The notes under the pieces: generated by a model
What the model saw: the letters and a program-made list of their open reading frames with translations, nothing else
Database searches by the model: none
What the model was told of the DNA's origin: nothing
Virus record (IMG/VR): IMGVR_UViG_2541047899_000009
Reading direction: 5' to 3' (one strand)
Length of the DNA stretch: 47,802 nucleotides
DNA from: a virus
Lineage: Duplodnaviria; Heunggongvirae; Uroviricota; Caudoviricetes
Part shown: piece after piece, positions 7,874 through 23,395 of the stretch
Position numbering within the stretch: position 1 is the first letter of the stretch
Layout of the letters: the number at the start of each line of letters is the position of its first letter
Program-made: the position numbers and the translations under genes

Positions 7874-10800
7874 TCAGCTGATACTGATGCCTGCGGTGGC
7901 TTTCTTCATCACCACAACCAGCAAATCGCTGATACTTGCTGTGGGATACCAGTCATTTACCAGCCATGCTGACACCGAAAACTCCAGCGTCATGTGACCG
8001 TGACCGGCAGGCATATCAATAACGCCACTGTAAATCAGCGTATTATCCAGCGCGGTACGGTTATAAATTTCAGCACCGTTTTTCCGCACTATCAGACGGC
8101 ATGAGGAGTAAATATCAGTATGCTCTCTCTCATGTTTAGCGCCGCTGAATGCCACCGCCGGAATAACAATCTGCCGGTCAAACGGCTGATCGTCATAAAC
8201 CCTGACGGTAATGGTCCCTGATGGCCACCGCTCCGGTGCACGGGAGTCCCGGGGGAAAGCTTTGCCCACTGTTTTAACGAGATCGCCTTCAATCTGGTTC
8301 GCGGACAGTTTTCCCAGAACCCGACAGTTCTCGTTAATCGTGACGTTGTTGAGCGTCCCGGAGTTCGCATTCACGTTACCGCTGATATCGGCATTTTTCG
8401 CCGTCAGCCGCCCATCCGGTGTCAGGGAAAATGCCGGAGGATTACCGCCGCTGGTAATGGTGGGGGCCGTCAGGCGTTTCAGGAACACGTCGTTCATGAA
8501 TATCTGGTTGCCCTGCGCCACAAACATCGGCGTTTCATTCCCGTTTGCCGGGTCAATAAACGCGATACGATTGGCGGCAACCAGAAACTGACTCAGTTTG
8601 CCTTCCTCTGTATCCTCCATACTGAGGCCAATACCCGCGACATAATGTTTGCCGTCTTTGGTCTGCTCAATTTTGACGCCCCACATGGCATTCCACTTAT
8701 CACTGGCGTCCTTCCACTCTTTCGAAAACTCCTCCAGTCTGCTGGCGTTATCCTCCGTCAGCTCGACTTTTTCCAGCAGCTCCTTGCCGAGATGGGATTC
8801 GGTTATCTGGCCTTTGAAAAAATCCAGGTAACCTTCCGCATCATCGCTCGCCCGACCAACAGCCTCCACGAATGCCGATTTGCCGACGGTGTTCACACTG
8901 CGGATATAAAAGTAATAATCACGACCCGGTTTGATATTGATACTGGCGGCTATCCAGTACAGCCCCGTGCCAAGGTAGCGGGCTGTGGTTTCAACCTGCC
9001 TGATATCCGCAATCCGTTTTTCCGAGAACCAGAACTCAAACTGTACCGTCGGGTCATAAACCGCAAGATGTGGCGTGGCGGTTATCTGAAAATAGCCCGG
9101 TGTCAGCTCAATCCGAGACGGCGCTGCCGGTGCGGCAATCCGGAACGATACCGATGCCGGATCGCCCTGCAGCCCCCACGCATTTACCGCCCGGACCGTC
9201 AGCATGTAACGCCCCAGCGCCAGTTGCGTGAAGCGGTATGTGGTTTCCGTCGTCCGGGCCGTGCTGACCAGCCGCTCACTGCCGTCATCCGCTGCCACGG
9301 TCAGGCGAAGCAGGAAGCTCACGCCCTTCACCACCTTCGGCGTGTCCCAGCGGGCCAGCACCTGATATTCCCCGCTGTCTGCGGTGACTTCGGCAGTCAG
9401 GTGCTGCACCGCTGGCGGCGTGACACCATTCACCGTGCCGCTCTGGTCGCCGTCAAAGTGCGCCCCGTTATCCACGATGGCCTCTTTCTCCGGTACATGC
9501 TGCACGGCAGTGATGGCATACGTGCCGTCGTCGTTCTCACGGATACTCACGCAGCGGAACAGGCGCTGGCGCAGCGTCGGCAACTTCAGCCCCCACACGC
9601 TGTATTCAGCAACGCCGTCAGGAACACGGCTCACTTTCACCTTCACGCCGTCGGTGACGGACTGGACCTCCACGCTGACCGGATTACCCTGCCCGTCAAC
9701 CAGGCTTATCAGCGTGGTGCCGGAGGATGGCAGCGTGATTTCACGGTCGAGCGTCAGCGTCCGGGTCTGGCTTTTCACCGCCAGCACGCGACCACCGATG
9801 CTGATACCGGCATAGTCATCATCGCAGATTTCAATAACATCGCCCGGCACATGGCGAAGCCCTTCTGCGCCCACGCTGAAATCCACGGTCTGCGTTTCCA
9901 GCAGTTCCGTTTTAATCAGCCACAGCCCGGCTCGGTGTGCCTGCCCCCGACTGGTACAACCAAAGGCATCCATCTTCGTGACATTACGACCGTAACGGGC
10001 AATGGCCTGCGTATCTTCAACAAGCTCTGTCGCCGTCTCCCAGCCGTTATCCGGGTCAATCCAGTTCACCTCAACGGCATTATGGCGGTCCTTCAGGGCG
10101 CTGAAGCTGTAGCGGAACGGCGCGCCATCATCCGGCATCACCACATTACTGCGGTTATAGGTCCACACCTTATCCGACGGTCGGTCCTGCACGAACGTCA
10201 GCGTCTGCCCGTTCCATACCGGCATACAGCGCATCGCCGAGCAGAAATCACTGAGCACATCCCACGCCTTGCGCTGTGTGGTCAGGTAAGCGTTACAGGT
10301 GATGCGCGGCTCCGTGCCGCCAAAGCCGTCCGGCACCGACTGGTCGCAATTCTGGCCGATGACATACAGCGCCCATTTATCCACATCCGCCGCACCAAGA
10401 CGTTTCCCCATGCCGTAGCGCGGATGGGTCAGCATATCCCACAGACACCAGGCCATGTTGTTGCTGTATGCCGGTTTTAACGTTCCGTCCCAGATACCGC
10501 TGTATTGCCGCGTCTGCGGGTTATAGTTCGACGGCACCTGCAGAATGCGCCCGCGAAGATGATAATTACGGCTCACCTGCTGGCTGCCGAACTGCTCCGA
10601 GTCCACCTGCACGCCAACCAGTGCCGTGTTCGGGTAGCACTGTTTCACATCGATGATTTCGGTGTATGACGACCAGAGCGTTTTGTTCTGCAGTTGGTCT
10701 GTGGTGCTGTCCGGCGTCATCCTGCGCATCCGGATATTGAACGGGCGCGGCGGCAGGTTACCCACCACCACCGAGGCCAGATACTGTGAGGTGGTTTTGC

Positions 10801-13331: not shown

Positions 13332-13661
13332 CTATGCCACGACCTGTTCAAAATCTGCCGTTATGGTTACCCACAGCGCCCCCACGCTTGCCGACCATTT
13401 ACGACAAACCACCCTGATCGGTTTCCAGTCATAAGGTGGCGTCCACTGAAATGCACGGACGCCACCGTGCCGTTCCAGAAAGGCTTTTAAAGATGGGTGT
13501 TCACATTTACGAACACGTATCGTCACGCTGTAAGTCGACAACTGGTTATTCAGTCCCGCCGCACGACGCTGTTCATAACCATCGCCCAGCTTCACTGTCA
13601 CCACTTTCGGCTCTGATACCACATTCATATCCGGGCGCACTTTCCAGTGAAACGTCTCCAT
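13332..13661 (-). CDS. M: tail tip protein M
   Basis: 109 aa, lambda M-like (METFHWKVRPDMNVVSEPKVVTV...), sitting between H and L. Confidence 0.9.
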   Translation of the reverse strand: METFHWKVRPDMNVVSEPKVVTVKLGDGYEQRRAAGLNNQLSTYSVTIRVRKCEHPSLKAFLERHGGVRAFQWTPPYDWKPIRVVCRKWSASVGALWVTITADFEQVVA

Positions 13662-16600
13662 TACCGATATGCTCCACTTAACCGACCACCATCACGGGCC
13701 TGCTGTTGCATAAAGTCCGCTGCCGCTTTTTTCCCGAGGTCATAAACCGCCTTCAGGGCAGCCGGACCTATCTGCCCGTTCGTGCCATCGTTATTGATCT
13801 CGATGTTGTACTGCGGGGAAAACATCGCCATACCTGAACCCCCAATATCCGCCACAACCCCCAGCTTACCGTCAGCACCACGACGCAATGGCAGAATGGC
13901 TTCAGGTCCCGCTTCCCCCATCACACCCGCGCCTTTTGCAAAAGCAAAAAACGTCGGACGGTTAACCACCGTGCCACTGTAACGACTCAAATCAGCAGAC
14001 TGATAAATCCCCCCATTGGCATTCAGGGAAAGGCTGCTGAGATCAAATCCCAGTACACTGCCAATCCCTTTTATCGATTTCATCATGGTTGCCTGCGCCA
14101 GGATTTTCGCCATATCTGACAGCACAGAAGAGGTGAAGGATTTGAAATTGAGTTTGCCGGTAGTGACAAAAGTTGCCAGGCCATTTCCCATGTTGCTGAA
14201 GGCTGACGAGAACACCTGTTCTGCTGTTTCTGCCGTATTATCTGCATCCACGGTAAAATCCTGAAATGCACGCAGGACTCCGTTTTTCCAGTTACCCTGC
14301 ACAACTTCAAGCTGTTGCCAGTAACGGCGATTCTCATTCAGTTGTCGGTTCAGGCTCTCCGTCAGCGCCTGCTCGGCCTTTCTGTAGTCATCCGTGTTAT
14401 ATGTCCCTTTCTGCTCACTATCCCGCCTCAACTGCTCCAGCTGTTGCTGGTATTTCTGGCGAAGACTCAGTTGTACCTGATATCGCTGTCGCTGCTGATC
14501 ACCCATACCCACCGTGGCGATATCCAGGTCATGTTGCTGACGCTGAGCGCGCTCTTCTTCAGCCAGTTGACTGGTCAGCTGAATTGTTTTTTTCTTCAGC
14601 TCGTTGAGTGCCGTCTGTTTCTGAAGCTCCTGCTGTTTTACATCCAGCAGCGTCAGTGCCTGAATCAGTTCATCTTTACGGGCCAGCACACTCTTTTCAT
14701 CTGCCGTCAGTTTTTTCCCGTCCAGGTCGCTGATGCGCTGCTGCAGAGCCAGGAGCTGTTTATGCGCTTCTGTCATCCTTTCCGTGGCAATGCCTGCTGA
14801 CTGTCTGGCAGCAGCAATCTGTCCTTCCACCTGTGCCTGTTGCTGACTGTACTGCAGCAATAACCGGGTGGCCTCATCATTACGGGTTTCGCGTGTTTTT
14901 TTCTTACCGGATGCCAGGGCTTTCTCGTAACGTTCATTTTCACGTTGTATCGCCGCATCCCTGACAGCCTGATCGGCGTACTGCATGGCATTAATACGCG
15001 CAATTTCACGCTGATGTCGTGCAGCTTCCGTTTCATTCATCCGGTTCAGTGCAGCATTTTCAGCATTACGGCGTTTCTGTTGCTCCTGATAATTCCGCTC
15101 TGCCTGCTCTTTTGCATCCTGCAAATCCTTCTGGCGTTTTTTCTCCTGAAGATCGTTAAGACGCTGCTGATCGTATTCAACCTGAGAAGATGATGCCGTC
15201 CAGGGGAGTCTTTTCGCCCGCGACACTTTCTCCTGCAAAGTGGCAATCTGCGCATCCAGCGAATCTTCACGACCAATATTCATGGCCGCATCCCAGAACT
15301 GCTTCCACCAGTCAGACAAAGTTTGCAGCGTACTGCCCAGCGCATTGAGGTTATTATCAATATCCGCAGTACGCCGACCGGTTTCCTCTGCCAGTGCAGA
15401 CATGGCTATCCGTGCCGCATCACTGGACCGCCCCTGCTCTCCAAGGACGCGTATCTGCTCAAGCTGAGTGGCAGTAAGAAAATGCAGCTCATTGTCCAGA
15501 GACTTCGCGGCATTTACAGGATCATCCTTCAGCCGCTTAAACTGATTTATGGTATCGCTGACCGACTGGCCAACCGATCGCTCCATCTGTGCGGCAGCTC
15601 TCGCCACCATACCGATATCGTTTCCACGAAATGCACCACTCCCCACCACCTGAGCCAGCGCACCGGCTGCAGCATGTTGCGTGATACCATTCCCGGAAAT
15701 AGCACGACTGAGCGTCCACAGCTGCCCGGCAGTGACTCCGGCATAATGCCCCGTCAGCGACAGCTGGCGGTTAAATTCTTCCCCCTCCTTCTGACCGTCA
15801 TACCAGGCTTTACCCAGACCATAGACGGCCGCGGTAATACCGCCAATAACCCCGCCCAGCATCATGCCTTTCGGTGACATCAGTGTGTCTATCCATCCGG
15901 CACGGTTAGCCAGCGTTATCCCGGATCCCCTCAGCGCCCCTAAATTGCCGCGGGCCAGTTCACCTATCAGAACGCCTATCTCCTGGCGGGCCGCTGCACT
16001 TTTCAGACCCAGCGAATGCGTGGCTTTTCCTGCCCGCTCCATTTTGCGGATATACACTTCTGCAGCACTGCTTACCCCCAGCTGGGCAGCCCTGGCACGA
16101 AGCAACTCAGAAGAAGAAAGATTCTGGCGGGTTGCCTGCTCTTTAAGCTGACGGATAAACGCCACTTTCTGTCGGGTAGCCTCTGCCTCAGCCTGCGTAA
16201 GAACACGGGTTTTCGCCGTAACCTCAGAAATCAGCGCCAGATAATCCTGCTGACCAATCCCGCCACTGTTTCTGGCCTGTCGGATCTGCTGCTGAATACG
16301 CTGTAATTCCTGCAGCCCCGCACTGGCCTGTTTCACACTGTCAATCTGACGATAAAACGCAGCAGCCGCTTTATCCTGAGCCTCCGCCAGAGCGATGGCC
16401 TGCGCCTGTTCCTCGCGCATTTTCTGGCTCAGTGCCTCCATGCGCTGGCGGGTTTTCTCCACCTCGCGGGCCATGCGTTCATGAGCCTGTGCGTTCTTCT
16501 CCACCGTCTGCGCATGGACGGATGCGGCTGTTGCAGCCGAAGAAGCTGCCTGCGTTGTCTGCCGGGCGGCCTGAGTCTGACGCTCCATAAAACGCTGCAT

Positions 16601-16726
16601 ACGGGCAGAAGACCGTTCTGCATCGCTGGCTGCACCATTCAGAAGGTTTTTGATACGGGGAATTTCATTTTTAAACTCTGCCGCATCAATCCCCAAATCA
16701 ATGACCAGGTTGGCTATCTGGTCCAT
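13661..16726 (-). CDS. H: tail tape measure protein H
   Basis: About 1021 aa, coiled-coil rich; C-terminus (NIEINNDGTNGQIGPAALKAVYD...RDGG) matches the recalled lambda H C-terminus. Start taken as the ATG at 16726 preceded by GGAGG; the track ORF begins at an upstream alternative codon (16756). Confidence 0.9.
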   Translation of the reverse strand: MDQIANLVIDLGIDAAEFKNEIPRIKNLLNGAASDAERSSARMQRFMERQTQAARQTTQAASSAATAASVHAQTVEKNAQAHERMAREVEKTRQRMEALSQKMREEQAQAIALAEAQDKAAAAFYRQIDSVKQASAGLQELQRIQQQIRQARNSGGIGQQDYLALISEVTAKTRVLTQAEAEATRQKVAFIRQLKEQATRQNLSSSELLRARAAQLGVSSAAEVYIRKMERAGKATHSLGLKSAAARQEIGVLIGELARGNLGALRGSGITLANRAGWIDTLMSPKGMMLGGVIGGITAAVYGLGKAWYDGQKEGEEFNRQLSLTGHYAGVTAGQLWTLSRAISGNGITQHAAAGALAQVVGSGAFRGNDIGMVARAAAQMERSVGQSVSDTINQFKRLKDDPVNAAKSLDNELHFLTATQLEQIRVLGEQGRSSDAARIAMSALAEETGRRTADIDNNLNALGSTLQTLSDWWKQFWDAAMNIGREDSLDAQIATLQEKVSRAKRLPWTASSSQVEYDQQRLNDLQEKKRQKDLQDAKEQAERNYQEQQKRRNAENAALNRMNETEAARHQREIARINAMQYADQAVRDAAIQRENERYEKALASGKKKTRETRNDEATRLLLQYSQQQAQVEGQIAAARQSAGIATERMTEAHKQLLALQQRISDLDGKKLTADEKSVLARKDELIQALTLLDVKQQELQKQTALNELKKKTIQLTSQLAEEERAQRQQHDLDIATVGMGDQQRQRYQVQLSLRQKYQQQLEQLRRDSEQKGTYNTDDYRKAEQALTESLNRQLNENRRYWQQLEVVQGNWKNGVLRAFQDFTVDADNTAETAEQVFSSAFSNMGNGLATFVTTGKLNFKSFTSSVLSDMAKILAQATMMKSIKGIGSVLGFDLSSLSLNANGGIYQSADLSRYSGTVVNRPTFFAFAKGAGVMGEAGPEAILPLRRGADGKLGVVADIGGSGMAMFSPQYNIEINNDGTNGQIGPAALKAVYDLGKKAAADFMQQQARDGGRLSGAYR

Positions 16727-17027
16727 AACGCACACCTCCGGAAATACCTTCCCCAAGATGCATCAGTTCTTCGTCCGTTCGCTCCGGTATCCCGTTCTCT
16801 TCCGGTAAAAGGCTGAAATCAGCCACCGCAGCATCACTGCTGCCGGACACCATTCTCACGATCAATGCCTTCAGCGAGGCAAACTGCGCATCCATCCACA
16901 CATCACTGAAGCTCTGCATCCGGAAATAATCGCCCCACTCACCAAGCTCAGTGGCCGACATTTCCGACAGCATCCGCCGCCAGTCTGCCCGCCGGAACTC
17001 CCGGGCAAGCCGCATGACAAACTGCAT
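16698..17027 (-). CDS. T: T segment of tail assembly chaperone GT (made by -1 programmed frameshift from G)
   Basis: 109-aa ORF in the -1 frame relative to G, beginning just after the G stop; conserved G/GT arrangement upstream of the tape measure gene. Confidence 0.7.
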   Translation of the reverse strand: MQFVMRLAREFRRADWRRMLSEMSATELGEWGDYFRMQSFSDVWMDAQFASLKALIVRMVSGSSDAAVADFSLLPEENGIPERTDEELMHLGEGISGGVRYGPDSQPGH

Positions 17028-17035
17028 TTCCCGCG

Positions 17036-17425
17036 TCAGGACTTTTCCGGCGTCAGCGCCTCATGCTCATCATCCACGGCATTATCAATGGCCCCCATAC
17101 CGCTCAGCGACAGAACCATCTCCGCCCCCGCACCCAGGGCATCATACGACCATGTTGTAATAACGGATGCGCAAAGCGTCTCTACATCCTTAGACTGATC
17201 CGCATTCCACAGTGAGCGGGAAACCAGCCAGGCATTGATATCCATCCCCATCCGCAGAAAAGCAATCTGTCGTTCAGCCTCCGGCAGTTCTCCCTCCACG
17301 GCATCAAACTTTGCCGTTCGCTGCTGAACAAACGTCAGATATTCAATTCTCTGCAGCCCGGACAGCTCACTGAGCACCACGGACTGTTTTTCATAATTAA
17401 ACGTGTCCTGTTTCAGAAACATCAT
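17036..17425 (-). CDS. G: tail assembly chaperone G
   Basis: MFLKQDTFNYEKQSVVLSELSGLQRIEYL resembles recalled lambda G (MFLKTESFEHNGVTVTLSELSALQRIEHL); ATG at 17425 preceded by GGTGGAG. Confidence 0.85.
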   Translation of the reverse strand: MMFLKQDTFNYEKQSVVLSELSGLQRIEYLTFVQQRTAKFDAVEGELPEAERQIAFLRMGMDINAWLVSRSLWNADQSKDVETLCASVITTWSYDALGAGAEMVLSLSGMGAIDNAVDDEHEALTPEKS

Positions 17426-17437
17426 GTTCTCCACCTG

Positions 17438-17462
17438 CAAAAAAGCCCCGCATAACCGGGGC
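17438..17462 (-). terminator. rho-independent terminator downstream of V
   Basis: Hairpin gccccg-cataacc-ggggc followed on the minus strand by ttttttgcagg. Confidence 0.5.
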
Positions 17463-17482
17463 AAATGATGAGTATCGTCCTG

Positions 17483-18226
17483 TTAACCTGCTGCGCTGAC
17501 AGTCACCGCAGTCACAGCCACAAAATTCCCGTCAGCGGTCATGCCCACAATGCTGACACTGCCCTGCTTCACGCCTTTTACCGTGGCCACAAGTCCGTTC
17601 AGGGTAACCGTGGCAGTCTGTGGATCTGACGAATGCACACTGATCGCTTTGTCACTGGCTCCGTCAGGTTTTACTGTAAAGGTCAGCGTGGTGGTTGCTC
17701 CCACTTTTACACTGGCAGACGCCGGTGATACTGTCAGCCCGGTAACGCTCACGGTTTCAGTGCCTTCCTCTGCCAGATACGGACGCCCCACACCGCTGAT
17801 TTTCACAGTGCGGGTCATCACGTCTTTTGAGGCAATGGTTTTACCCAGTGAGCTCAGCCAGCCACGGAAAACATCAACAGTGCCGTTGGGATATTTGATA
17901 CGAAACGCGCAGACTTCACCGGAGTCGAACAACTGAACCAGTTTTTTCTGCCCGCTGTCACCCGGACGCCAGGCCAGCGTCGCCGAAGTATCACCAACGG
18001 ATTTCTGCCCCTGGGTTGTCGTTTTCCAGTCTGCATCTTCATCATCGAGATAAGTGTCATCTTCTGCATCAGCGGTCATTTCGCCAGGTTGCAGATCCTT
18101 CACCATCGCAAGACGCAGCCAGTCAGTGTCCGACAAAGGGTTCGCAAACGCATCGCCGTTGCCGGTATACATCCAGAACGTCGTCCCCGCACCTTTCGTC
18201 TTTGCCAGTGGATTTGGTGTGGTCAT
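17483..18226 (-). CDS. V: major tail protein V (with C-terminal Ig-like domain)
   Basis: N-terminus (KGAGTTFWMYTGNGDAFANPLSDTDW...YLDDEDADW...FPNGTVDVFRGW) matches recalled lambda V; ATG at 18226 preceded by AAGGAGG. Confidence 0.95.
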   Translation of the reverse strand: MTTPNPLAKTKGAGTTFWMYTGNGDAFANPLSDTDWLRLAMVKDLQPGEMTADAEDDTYLDDEDADWKTTTQGQKSVGDTSATLAWRPGDSGQKKLVQLFDSGEVCAFRIKYPNGTVDVFRGWLSSLGKTIASKDVMTRTVKISGVGRPYLAEEGTETVSVTGLTVSPASASVKVGATTTLTFTVKPDGASDKAISVHSSDPQTATVTLNGLVATVKGVKQGSVSIVGMTADGNFVAVTAVTVSAAG

Positions 18227-19236: not shown

Positions 19237-19512
19237 TTACTCAATAAAGATCATTGGCTTACCGTTAAAGCGTTCATGCCGTGTGACCGTCCATTGTTGT
19301 CCGTCATAAACAACGCGATCCCCGCGCCGTGGGCGGTATCCCGAAGAAAACACCACCAGAGAGACCGCAGGTCCGGACAGAGCATTCAGCTCTGCCAGTG
19401 TTTCTCCCGGGATCACAGTCATATCGACATCATTAATCGAGGCTGTCTTTCCCATCTTTCTGACCGTGATCGCATCCATACGCGCTGCCAGCCGGGAAAA
19501 GGGATCAGACAT
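19237..19512 (-). CDS. head-tail connector / head completion protein (FII-like position)
   Basis: 91-aa ORF between the head genes and Z; assignment is by position and size only. Confidence 0.5.
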   Translation of the reverse strand: MSDPFSRLAARMDAITVRKMGKTASINDVDMTVIPGETLAELNALSGPAVSLVVFSSGYRPRRGDRVVYDGQQWTVTRHERFNGKPMIFIE

Positions 19513-19828
19513 TGAGTTTTACCGGCACTTCTTCTACACTGGTTCCGGCATCTGCCCAGACAACCCCGACCAGCGGATCAGAGCCGCTGTTAGTCAGCTG
19601 AACTTTTCCGGACTTCAGATAAACCTTCTTACCCGTTTTCATGTCATCCGTTTTCAGCTTAGGCAGCATAAACACACCTTCGGTCATGCCGTCGCCTGTT
19701 TCACCCTGTGGAATATCGGTCAGCGCCACCGCAAAAACATCACCCACCTGCACCAGCTCTCCGCTGCTGATGGCTGCACTGGCAACAATCGCCACCGTTT
19801 TTCCTTCTTCTACAAAATTCTTTGCCAT
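19505..19828 (-). CDS. DUF2190-like head-associated protein (possible decoration/stabilisation protein)
   Basis: 108 aa from the internal ATG (MAKNFVEEGKT...) preceded by GGAGA; immediately downstream of the capsid gene. Confidence 0.55.
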   Translation of the reverse strand: MAKNFVEEGKTVAIVASAAISSGELVQVGDVFAVALTDIPQGETGDGMTEGVFMLPKLKTDDMKTGKKVYLKSGKVQLTNSGSDPLVGVVWADAGTSVEEVPVKLNV

Positions 19829-19871
19829 AACTGTCTCCGCACAGCCCCGTTCAGGGGCTGATTTCAGGTAC

Positions 19872-19890
19872 AAAAAAAGCCCTTACGGGC
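19872..19890 (-). terminator. hairpin terminator downstream of the major capsid gene
   Basis: gcccttacgggc hairpin followed on the minus strand by T7 (plus-strand aaaaaaa). Confidence 0.55.
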
Positions 19891-19914: not shown

Positions 19915-21873
19915 TTACGCCGTACATTTCACCAGACCGCGGTGATCAACTGGCGCGACACCGGCGTCAATACGCACTTTCGTTGTCACGCCATCCACAC
20001 TGAAGCCCTCCATCTGATCAATATATGGCGTATCCACACCGTTGAGATAAGCCACTTCAATCGTATCGGAGCCTTTTGACGCAGCCAGGTAGAAGGTGGT
20101 CTGGCTGTTATCATCAAGACGAGGCTCTGCAATAACGGTCGCAAAATCTTTCACCGGGTTAATAATACCGGCGTTAATGTCAGCCCCCTTGACACTTGAG
20201 GAGCGAATGACCTGGTTAGCAACAGACTCCATCGCCGTCGGTACCAGTACGAACGCAGGACGAATATTCAGATGACGCTCCCCCTCTTTCTGAACGCGCA
20301 TCAACTGGCGGGCTTTATCCAGCGATGCCACGTCCATTGCAGCGCTCTCCAGTACGTTTGCATGTTTCGCTTTATCGAACAGACTTACATTATCTGTGGA
20401 GATTTTCGGGTTAGACGTCAGAATGGCATAAACCAGATCGGCAATAGTGGATTTCGCCGCACGGCCCAGTTTCATCGGGACATCGGTCAGCATATTCAGA
20501 TCATCATTGATAATGGCCTGACGGGTGATACTGAACAGCTCGCCATAGGTCGCCAGTGCAATAGTGGCCTGTTTATCTCCGGTGGTGACGTATTTATATT
20601 CCGCCCCTTCACGCACCTGACGCAGAGCACTGAAGCCCCCCATACCCACACGATGGGCAATTTTAAAATCAGACAACTGACCTTTCCGCGTCCATTGTTC
20701 ATAGGTTTCAGGAGCATCTTCCCAGCCCTGCAGAATGGCTTTGTTCGCAACATCCAGCAGAATATTACCGAAGTCAGACGTACTGTGGGTGAACGCCGCA
20801 CCGACCATCTGCATCGGGTTATAACCGGAAACCCCAATACCCCGTTCAGTCAGTGACATACGGGCATATTCACGCAGGGTCATCCCGTTGTAGACATTAT
20901 CACGTTCGGTTTTTTCAAATCCGGCACGCGCCATCAGCGCCTGGCGGATCCCGTCCCCCACAAAATTACCGTTACCAGCATAAATATGAGCCGGTGTATT
21001 TTTATTGGATGGCGTGGACTCGCGCCCCATCTCGTTCAACAGCTTTTCGCGGGCCTGCTCCAGCGAACACTCAGGATCGGCAAGACACTGAGCCTGCAGC
21101 GTCTGATAACGCCCGCCAAACATGGCAAACAGATCATTAATACCGTTTACACGCGCTTTTTGCTCTGCCAGTACCTGCGCACGGATACTGTTTTCATCCA
21201 CCACGGGTGCTGCTGCCTGCACTGGCGTCCGGGAGGCTGCAGGTTCATCATCCTGTACGCGTGGAGCACTGTTGCGTGGCGGAGTAATCATGTTTCGAAT
21301 GGATTCCGGCATCTTTTTAAATTCCTCTGTACGTTTTGACTGAATACATGCCATTGCCTTAACGGCTGGCGTCACCTGATCAGCAAATCCATGTGCCAGA
21401 CATTCGGCACCGGACATCCAGGTCTCATCCGCCAGCATGGCAGCAATTTCATCGGTGGTTTTCCCGGTTTTCTGTGCATAAGCGGGTAACAGAACCGCCT
21501 CAACCTTATCGAGCAGGTCGGCATAGGTGCGCATGTCCTCCGCATCACCGCCCGTAAAGCCAAATGGTTTATGAATCATCATGAAGGTGTTTTCCGGCAT
21601 AATGACCGGGTTTCCCACCATCGCAATGACCGACGCCATTGACGCCGCCACACCGTCGACATAAACGGTAATGGACGCACCATGTGTTTTCAGCGCATTA
21701 AAAATGGCGATGCCTTCAAAGACATCGCCACCCGGTGAATTGATATGGAGATTAATGTGGGTGATATCGCCCAGTGCATTCAGATCACTGATAAACTGCT
21801 TCGCTGTAACACCCCAGAAACCAATCTCGTCATAAATATAAATATCCGCGTCACTCTGGTGACCAGCCTGCAT
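19915..21873 (-). CDS. head maturation protease (ClpP/S49-like) fused to major capsid protein
   Basis: About 652 aa; N-terminal serine-protease motifs (INSPGGDVFEGIAIFNALK, DGVAASMASVIAMVG), a linker, then a long C-terminal capsid-like domain. Start taken at MQAGHQSD just after the portal stop. Confidence 0.8.
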   Translation of the reverse strand: MQAGHQSDADIYIYDEIGFWGVTAKQFISDLNALGDITHINLHINSPGGDVFEGIAIFNALKTHGASITVYVDGVAASMASVIAMVGNPVIMPENTFMMIHKPFGFTGGDAEDMRTYADLLDKVEAVLLPAYAQKTGKTTDEIAAMLADETWMSGAECLAHGFADQVTPAVKAMACIQSKRTEEFKKMPESIRNMITPPRNSAPRVQDDEPAASRTPVQAAAPVVDENSIRAQVLAEQKARVNGINDLFAMFGGRYQTLQAQCLADPECSLEQAREKLLNEMGRESTPSNKNTPAHIYAGNGNFVGDGIRQALMARAGFEKTERDNVYNGMTLREYARMSLTERGIGVSGYNPMQMVGAAFTHSTSDFGNILLDVANKAILQGWEDAPETYEQWTRKGQLSDFKIAHRVGMGGFSALRQVREGAEYKYVTTGDKQATIALATYGELFSITRQAIINDDLNMLTDVPMKLGRAAKSTIADLVYAILTSNPKISTDNVSLFDKAKHANVLESAAMDVASLDKARQLMRVQKEGERHLNIRPAFVLVPTAMESVANQVIRSSSVKGADINAGIINPVKDFATVIAEPRLDDNSQTTFYLAASKGSDTIEVAYLNGVDTPYIDQMEGFSVDGVTTKVRIDAGVAPVDHRGLVKCTA

Positions 21874-21886
21874 CCTGAACCAGGAA

Positions 21887-23395
21887 TTATTCTTCGGACT
21901 GGTCGTCGGTGTGCTGCGGCTCCTGTCGTTTCGTTGCGGCACTGCTGCCTCCTTTATCACTGGCCGGATCGGTATCAAATACCAGATCCAGCTTGCGGTT
22001 TTCATCAATTTCTGCCTTGCGCCGACGTTTGACATCATCCGGATTACGACCACCTGCACGTACCCAGTCTGATTCTGTCGCCGCTCCACCACGAATCTGA
22101 ATTTTCCAGGCCTCAGCCTCCTTAACAGGGTCAATCCACGGCATCACCGGTCCGGAATACACCGCGGTATACAGTGAAGAACGGTCAAGATCGCGGGGTA
22201 GCCTGATAACACCGGATGCCACAGCCTGTTTCAGCCAGGCACGATACATCGGGCGGGTGACGGCACCAATAAACCAGTCCTGCAGGATCAGGTAGCCATC
22301 AGTGGATTCAACCAGCTCCTGACGCTGGGCGCTGTAAGTGCCGTTATAGTTGCGCGCTGTACTGGAAAAACTCAGACGACTGCCCGCCGCCACGGCACGC
22401 AACTGACCATTACGAAAAGTTTCAAGGTTAGGATTGGGGCGATCCGACTTCACCATTCCGATTTCTTCGCCGGGTTTCAGATCGTCGTAAATAATGCCTG
22501 GCTGAATGGTAAGCTCGCGTTCATTCTCCTTGCTGTCATTACCATCCGTTTCATAGCTCTGTCCGTCGCCTTTGCGGATGTACATCCCCAGAGCAGCAGC
22601 GATCCTTGCTGCAGTCAGCTCAGAATCTTCATATTCTTTCAGGGCACTGAGGCGGATCAGCACACCGGACAATAAAGACGTCCCGCGCATCTGGTGCAGA
22701 CGGCGAACAAATTTAAGATGCAGCATTCGCTCTGCATCCACTTCTTTGGTTTCCATCTGCCGTCCGGATACAGGACGACTTTTATACACCAGATATTTTT
22801 CGGGACGCCCCCAGTCATCAACAAACACGCCCTGATTCAGCCTGTTGCTCTCATCACTGGTCATGGGAATAAAGTCCGGCTCGAGCGCCTCCAGCCAGAA
22901 ATGAACACCGGCAGAAGGCGTCAGGCTGTTTATGCGCCCGGAAACCATCTGGGCAAACACCTCACCATCGCGCAGCCAGGTACGCAGCATCAGACGTTCC
23001 AGCATCGGACGGGTAAACTGCCCGGTGACCTCCGGACTGACAGACCATTCACTCCATCGGGTACGTATCTCCGCTGCCAGATCACGGGCAATGGCCCCAT
23101 TGCGTAATACCGGATGTGGCTCGACAATAATCCCGTTTTTCCCCACCACCCGTTCTTCCAGCTTGTCAAATACACCAATGACCAGATCGTGGTTGTTATC
23201 AAGGTAACGAGCCTGCTCACGTAACGACACGGCCCCGTACTGGCTTAACTGGTCGGCAGTTCGGTTCTCCCGTCGGGCTTTGTGTGTCCGCGTCGTTTTT
23301 ACGGCCTCATAAGCCTGGATCACCGCACGGGAACGCAGCCTTGCCGCTTTCCATCCTGGTGAAAAAACGCCAATCACATCATCAAGAATTGCCAT
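21887..23395 (-). CDS. portal protein (lambda B-like)
   Basis: About 502 aa, acidic C-terminus; its ATG overlaps the W stop; sits between the terminase/W and protease-capsid genes. Confidence 0.85.
   Translation of the reverse strand: MAILDDVIGVFSPGWKAARLRSRAVIQAYEAVKTTRTHKARRENRTADQLSQYGAVSLREQARYLDNNHDLVIGVFDKLEERVVGKNGIIVEPHPVLRNGAIARDLAAEIRTRWSEWSVSPEVTGQFTRPMLERLMLRTWLRDGEVFAQMVSGRINSLTPSAGVHFWLEALEPDFIPMTSDESNRLNQGVFVDDWGRPEKYLVYKSRPVSGRQMETKEVDAERMLHLKFVRRLHQMRGTSLLSGVLIRLSALKEYEDSELTAARIAAALGMYIRKGDGQSYETDGNDSKENERELTIQPGIIYDDLKPGEEIGMVKSDRPNPNLETFRNGQLRAVAAGSRLSFSSTARNYNGTYSAQRQELVESTDGYLILQDWFIGAVTRPMYRAWLKQAVASGVIRLPRDLDRSSLYTAVYSGPVMPWIDPVKEAEAWKIQIRGGAATESDWVRAGGRNPDDVKRRRKAEIDENRKLDLVFDTDPASDKGGSSAATKRQEPQHTDDQSEE

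Follow-up and report, generated by a model that had tools for sequence, protein, structure and literature searches.

How do ribosomes pass from the tail assembly gene G into the overlapping frame of T in a lambda-like prophage whose G/T junction lacks the lambda slip site? In lambda, the two genes are reportedly joined by a -1 programmed frameshift on G_GGA_AAG, and T is made only as the fusion protein GT. The window analyzed here, a 47,802-nt stretch of viral DNA (Caudoviricetes; IMG/VR record IMGVR_UViG_2541047899_000009), belongs to an mEp460-like prophage and carries these tail genes in the order V-G-T-H, every one of them on the minus strand. The features around the junction are as follows.

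17483..18226, minus strand: major tail tube gene, lambda V-like (Phage_TTP_12, E=5e-67; C-terminal Big_2, E=2e-12)
17445..17462, minus strand: terminator-like GC hairpin followed by a T-run (TTTTTT), found by pattern scan between V and G
17036..17425, minus strand: gene G, tail assembly chaperone, 129 aa (Pfam Phage_TAC_2, PF06894, E=5.9e-40)
17061..17063, minus strand: TGA that closes the -1 frame, bounding the productive-shift window on its upstream side
17042..17048, minus strand: putative slip heptamer G_GAA_AAG, by homology to the lambda and N15 slip sites
16698..17042, minus strand: -1-frame T segment of 114 aa plus stop (Pfam Phage_tail_T, PF06223, E=5.1e-15)
13661..16726, minus strand: tape measure gene H (Pfam TMP_2, TMP_4, and Tape_meas_lam_C)

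The V-like gene lies directly upstream of G and is called "major tail protein" in the mEp460 and Ecol_316 annotations. In the mEp460, HK225, and N15 records, the matching position between V and G carries an annotated rho-independent terminator or stem-loop, and in the window the hairpin may be a partial terminator that cuts G/GT/H expression relative to the tube protein. Farther upstream of the tail genes, a 739-aa open reading frame (19915-22134, minus strand) resembles a ClpP-type prohead protease fused to a major capsid protein, and the small open reading frame after it (19505-19873) may encode a head decoration protein. On the other side of the junction, H overlaps the 3′ end of T behind a strong Shine-Dalgarno (SD) sequence, GGAGG; the start of H was placed from the mEp460 annotation and the SD energy, -10.8 kcal/mol.

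G runs from an ATG at 17425 to a TGA at 17038-17036 on the minus strand, and the 129-aa protein, counted from this first ATG (PGAP uses the second, at 17422), is the zero-frame product. The 3′ end of the gene reads ACG CCG GAA AAG TCC TGA. The reading frame of T is -1 relative to G, overlaps G by 22 nt, is open only from 17060, and closes at a TGA at 16700-16698 (minus strand). Because the TGA at 17063-17061 shuts the -1 frame upstream of 17060, a productive shift is confined to these 22 nt. A first-pass annotation made from the letters alone had quoted the last codons of G as CCG GAA AAG TCC TGA, had placed T in the -1 frame at the end of G, and had reported the lambda slip site to be missing. 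The same letters are indeed found on the minus strand, the T frame opens where described and matches Phage_tail_T, and GGGAAAG does not occur on the minus strand anywhere across 16690-17470. A slip site farther upstream in G, which the annotation had named as an observation that would speak against its reading, was searched for along the whole gene, and none leads into T. There is no canonical in-frame X_XXY_YYZ heptamer anywhere in G, and GGAAAAG itself fails this pattern, its first three positions being G, G, and A. Nine in-frame Z_ZZN tetramers are present in the gene; only one of them, A_AAG at 17045-17042, keeps the -1 frame open into T, and in each of the other eight a -1-frame stop is reached before T.

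This tetramer is the second half of a heptamer whose register, read 17048→17042, places GAA (Glu) in the P site and AAG (Lys) in the A site. The lambda junction has the same design: homologous G (Phage_TAC_2) and T (Phage_tail_T) genes in V-G-T-H order, the same -1 frame relationship, a slip at the same aligned codons with AAG for the A-site lysine, and a T portion that begins at the same residue. The zero frame of lambda reads TCT GCG GGA AAG TGT, and slipping on G_GGA_AAG yields PVSAGK followed by VFDGELSFALKLAREMGRPDW. In the window, CCG GAA AAG leads to a predicted junction of ALTPEK followed by VLTREMQFVMRLAREFRRADW. The two junctions pair without a gap (TPEK/VLTREMQF…LAREF in the window and SAGK/VFDGELSF…LAREM in lambda, the slash marking the shift), and this residue-for-residue alignment identifies GGAAAAG (17048→17042) as the positional homologue of lambda GGGAAAG, from which it differs by a single G-to-A change at heptamer position 3. 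However, there are differences. First, the P-site codon is GAA (Glu) in the window, not GGA (Gly) as in lambda, and therefore the window heptamer is not of the X_XXY_YYZ type. Second, the zero-frame tail past the slip site is 1 codon long in the window compared to 5 in lambda. Third, the window is without the candidate downstream RNA structure of the lambda/N15 group (see below). Finally, the window G protein is about 30-34% identical to lambda G.

The same heptamer is already annotated in phage N15. A misc_feature at 10027-10033 of the RefSeq record NC_001901, labeled "slippery sequence for -1 translational frameshift," consists of GGAAAAG, and its register is ACT GCG GAA AAG CCC. The HK225 record in turn cites the N15 "downstream half of translational frameshift product." This means that curators had already recognized a noncanonical heptamer for the G/GT family. 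N15 (genes 14/15), HK225, mEp237, and mEp043 share an identical G_GAA_AAG with the window at the corresponding codons, and the conserved T sequence comes next in them as well. N15 differs from the window in that it falls in the second deep branch of the family, where the zero-frame tail has 5 codons, in that the codon before the heptamer is GCG rather than CCG, and in that it has no upstream SD-like motif, unlike the window. By heptamer, register, and homology of its codons to the annotated N15 site, the window site belongs to this N15-type class, and it is the probable site of an ordinary lambda-like G/GT frameshift in an mEp460-like Escherichia coli prophage, of a kind already known. The suggestion of the first-pass annotation that a non-lambda slippery sequence ("GAAAAG or similar") is used was thus well placed, G_GAA_AAG standing at the lambda-homologous codons and the N15 record marking the same heptamer. 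Its other option, a different mechanism, is unneeded, and no evidence points there.

Conservation of the junction was analyzed in a comparative set of 274 loci from viral and genome contigs (window included), 12 named phages, and 8 distant metagenomic loci. The genome-contig scan gave only 13 loci; the viral contigs, the named phages, and the representative library described below supplied the diversity. When the 274 loci and 12 named phages were anchored on the Lys codon, [G/A]_[G/A]NA_AAR was present at the homologous position in 286 of 286 junctions. Among 17 clade representatives (<88% identical), the heptamer contained 1.67 bits/position compared to 0.57 in the upstream 28 nt. The presence of the motif in all junctions and the higher information content of the heptamer argue that the slip feature is not there by chance. 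From the first residue after the Lys, the -1-frame translation is gapless in 17 of the 17 representatives ([VAI][LF]xxE[LMI]xF..LAREFxRxDWRxML), whereas the G linker immediately before the slip site varies in both length and sequence. The check that the first-pass annotation had proposed, an alignment with the GT junctions of related phages, therefore extends without gaps to lambda and 15 other divergent clades. The slip-site forms were distributed as follows.

G_GAA_AAG: the window clade and three more E. coli/Salmonella clades, to 55-58% G identity, including Fels-1; N15, HK225, mEp237, mEp043, and Flotzy; Enterobacter Ravinvirus; Superficieibacter; Symbiopectobacterium; six very distant metagenomic representatives
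G_GGA_AAG: lambda, 434, some Stx2a phages, Serratia, and another Symbiopectobacterium prophage
A_AAA_AAG (dnaX-type): one Stx2d phage (Stx2d_112808, locus L276)
G_GCA_AAA_TAG, A_GCA_AAG, and A_GTA_AAG: rare outliers at the homologous position

The loci with slip-site variants are L094, L190-L193 (Ewingella and metagenome contigs), L276, L292, and L293. Across the family, the sole invariant core is NNA_AAR. G_GAA_AAG was found in at least 19 divergent lineages, and the codon before it always ends in G (CCG, GCG, CTG, or TTG). A search of the library of representatives clustered at 50% identity gave 78 clusters, 51 of them with full-length representatives, in which the residues at the slip position were as follows.

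Glu-Lys: 38 of 51 full-length representatives
Gly-Lys (lambda type): 4 of 51
Ala-Lys: 3 of 51
Other residue pairs: 6 of 51

All of the distant Glu-Lys representatives checked at the nucleotide level (6 out of 6) had G_GAA_AAG. GGAAAAG is the commonest form of the slip site in the G family, and the textbook heptamer of lambda is the minority state. The novelty of the window site implied by the first-pass annotation does not stand, this being the state of the family's majority.

We conclude that the junction very probably works by a lambda-type G/GT programmed -1 ribosomal frameshift in a lambdoid prophage of the mEp460/cdtI type, most likely through a standard dual-tRNA -1 slip at G_GAA_AAG. 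Most ribosomes would stop at the TGA of G, giving the 129-aa chaperone, and a small fraction would slip back one base on the heptamer (17048→17042, minus strand). The A-site tRNA-Lys would move off AAG onto AAA, a cognate and favorable re-pairing, and the P-site tRNA-Glu would shift from GAA to GGA, where the three codon positions would form G:C, G·U, and A:U pairs in that order. Reading would resume from G17042 as GTC CTG ACG, and the predicted GT fusion is 242 aa long, consisting of G residues 1-128 and T. The T domain of GT would, on the lambda model, bring the tail tube protein to the complex of tape measure and G.

Published measurements bear on how efficient such a slip might be. Among tetramers in E. 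coli, A_AAG shifts most readily (PMC4066793), and the A-site change AAG→AAA is favorable (PMC6787027). Two results speak against a high rate: in a reconstituted system, Peng et al. used AUG GAA AAG as a "less slippery" control that gave "mainly the 0-frame product" (PMC6924986), and bare tetramers shift little above background in vivo (PMC4066793). The 2019 in vitro study of Peng et al. was the only match in an open-access full-text search, which found no paper treating GGAAAAG as a phage slip site. A low slip rate may nevertheless suffice because lambda requires only about one GT per 30 G (G:GT of ∼30:1; PMC5009743). The E. coli dnaX site (A_AAA_AAG) is a useful comparison. The A-site slip of tRNA-Lys from AAG to AAA would be the same, and an SD-like GAGG lies in the window at the dnaX spacing, 10 nt upstream. 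However, dnaX has a downstream hairpin and the window has none, the SD-like motif of the window is weak and not significant, and P-site re-pairing would be imperfect; the efficiency expected in the window is at most a few percent rather than 50-80%.

The alternative that fares best leaves the -1 shift and the GT product unchanged and differs in the tRNAs involved. It is that tRNA-Lys alone slips on A_AAG, whether it sits in the A site or waits in the P site for the next codon, and that tRNA-Glu does nothing specific. We consider this unlikely, though several features of the family suit it. NNA_AAR is the only strictly invariant core, and the outliers A_GCA_AAG, A_GTA_AAG, and G_GCA_AAA_TAG have P-site codons that are unable to re-pair. 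In addition, a stop directly follows the Lys codon in several lineages (G ending in E-K or A-K), as would suit a P-site slip during slow termination. In the window, on the other hand, the next codon is UCC, neither a stop nor evidently slow, and tetramers without a stimulator remain near background in vivo (0.147% compared to 0.112%; PMC4066793). The codon before G_GAA_AAG, moreover, ends in G in every lineage, across four codon families. This conserves heptamer position 1, which matters only where the P-site tRNA re-pairs, and it therefore supports P-site involvement. The modest cost of the imperfect pairing supports it as well, since in the dnaX system the -1-frame penalty for one A·U→G·U mismatch is only ∼5 kJ/mol and substantial shifting remains (PMC6787027). 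The dual-tRNA slip is thus the preferred reading.

Independent initiation of T, at the ATG at 17027 (MQFVMRLAREF…), would make a frameshift unneeded. This ATG, five codons past the slip site, is the T start used by PGAP and in the mEp460 record, and several records call a 109-aa T coding sequence there. We rejected such a start as very improbable, mainly on conservation. An ATG is found at this position in only 2 of the 17 clade representatives and a GTG in one more, and in 6 of the 17 the first start codon of any kind comes 23 codons in, within the conserved LAREFxRxDWRxM core. Protein-level conservation also covers the -1-frame stretch from the slip site to the ATG ([VAI][LF]xxE[LMI]xF), where no indels occur. 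The SD sequence is weak, -4.3 kcal/mol compared to -6.4 for G and -10.8 for H, and lies 1-2 nt from the ATG, and in lambda, T is known to be made only as GT. Gapless -1-frame conservation, an ATG that is not conserved, and a poor SD sequence together argue that T is an extension of G rather than a gene with its own start. Transcriptional slippage, in which loss of one A from the short A4 run at the junction would give the same frame, has next to no chance of being the cause, as in bacteria it usually takes runs of some 7 or more A or T (reviewed in PMC5009743) and the homologous lambda run, where the shift is established as ribosomal, has 3 A compared to 4 in the window.

Candidate stimulators of the proposed shift were looked for on both sides of the heptamer. 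Structure downstream of the heptamer in the window was not significant compared to shuffled sequences (z=-1.09 for 90 nt and +0.92 for 52 nt), no conserved downstream structure was seen in the window's clade (the consensus of 10 sequences reached -3 kcal/mol), and there was no Rfam match at the junction. The window therefore has no stimulated -1 frameshift cassette of the kind defined by a stable, conserved structure 5-9 nt downstream. There is a candidate on the upstream side, inside the 6-17 nt range where such cassettes carry an SD-like sequence.

17059..17062, minus strand: SD-like GAGG, exactly 10 nt 5′ of the heptamer, candidate weak stimulator

The GAGG duplex with the anti-SD sequence has an energy of -5.6 kcal/mol and ranks only in the top 24% of background windows from its own gene. 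At the equivalent position, Salmonella relatives carry GGAGG or GGAGAGG with energies of -7.4 to -9.5 kcal/mol (top 0-3%), and the lambda/N15 group has no SD-like motif there. These observations are suggestive of an upstream SD-like stimulator in the short-tail branch, whose lineages are not independent; because GAGG is not significant in the window itself, we put the stimulator forward as a hypothesis only.

The lambda/N15 branch has a candidate of a different kind. A candidate conserved RNA structure begins 8 nt past the heptamer (lambda locus L004, about 511-582) and combines an 8-bp outer stem with a 14-bp inner hairpin, with a consensus energy of -32 kcal/mol. It was seen in columns 15-85 of alignment A3, which contains the lambda, N15-like, Stx, and mEp043 loci; 95.5% of the cells are paired and two pairs are compensatory, among only 7 rather similar sequences. 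This candidate structure is not present in the window's branch.

The junction is widespread in E. coli. The G/T region of the window is 99.8% identical to that of phage mEp460_ev081, 97.7-99.8% identical to those of mEp460, cdtI, Tritos, Ayreon, and other sequenced lambdoid E. coli phages, and 100% identical to that of a prophage of E. coli Ecol_316. At ≥95% identity, the module was found in 1,840 of 5,426 complete E. coli genomes. Every record checked for the window's clade, from PGAP and from phage entries (e.g., loci L286 and L001-L003), gives G and T as two genes with slippage unmarked, the annotated T starting at the ATG five codons past the junction or farther downstream. The missing ribosomal-slippage join for T is probably a systematic annotation gap, and a literature search found no paper on a frameshift in the mEp460-like clade. 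This matters in practice, as the module is found in about one-third of complete E. coli genomes and its likely product is the 242-aa GT fusion. Motif finders restricted to X_XXY_YYZ, such as the screen in PMC4066793, overlook the GGAAAAG site. Two database proteins containing both the G and the T Pfam domains (P0028 and P0041) were considered as slip-site evidence and set aside as uninformative. They are internal deletion fusions in which G residues ∼96-108 are joined straight to the T frame, and they may be real deletion variants or assembly artifacts.

A neighbor-joining tree of GT proteins (midpoint root, limited sampling) showed two deep branches, one with a zero-frame tail of 0-1 codon, which includes the window, and one with a tail of 5 codons, which includes lambda and N15. 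GGAAAAG and GGGAAAG are each found in both branches. This means that the state has switched at least twice and that the two heptamers are interchangeable in evolution. GGAAAAG, the wider-spread state, may be the ancestral one. It is a mild curiosity that the predicted slip heptamer served as a "less slippery" control in vitro. For the biology of frameshifting, the site is a reminder that selection has maintained, in many lineages, a heptamer whose P-site pairing would include a G·U at the second position, and it reveals no new mechanism. A bolder reading, which we offer tentatively and hold to be somewhat doubtful, is that this nearly nonslippery control heptamer, G_GAA_AAG, is the majority and possibly the ancestral slip site of the lambda G/GT family and that G_GGA_AAG of lambda is a derived minority form. 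If this is true, either tail assembly in these phages would need far less GT than in lambda or the site would need unrecognized stimulators. The candidates for the latter would be the GAGG or GGAGG 10 nt upstream in the short-tail branch, which includes the window, and, in the N15/lambda branch, the RNA structure that begins 8 nt past the heptamer. The G/GT family would then be a natural series in which P-site mismatch is traded off against stimulators.
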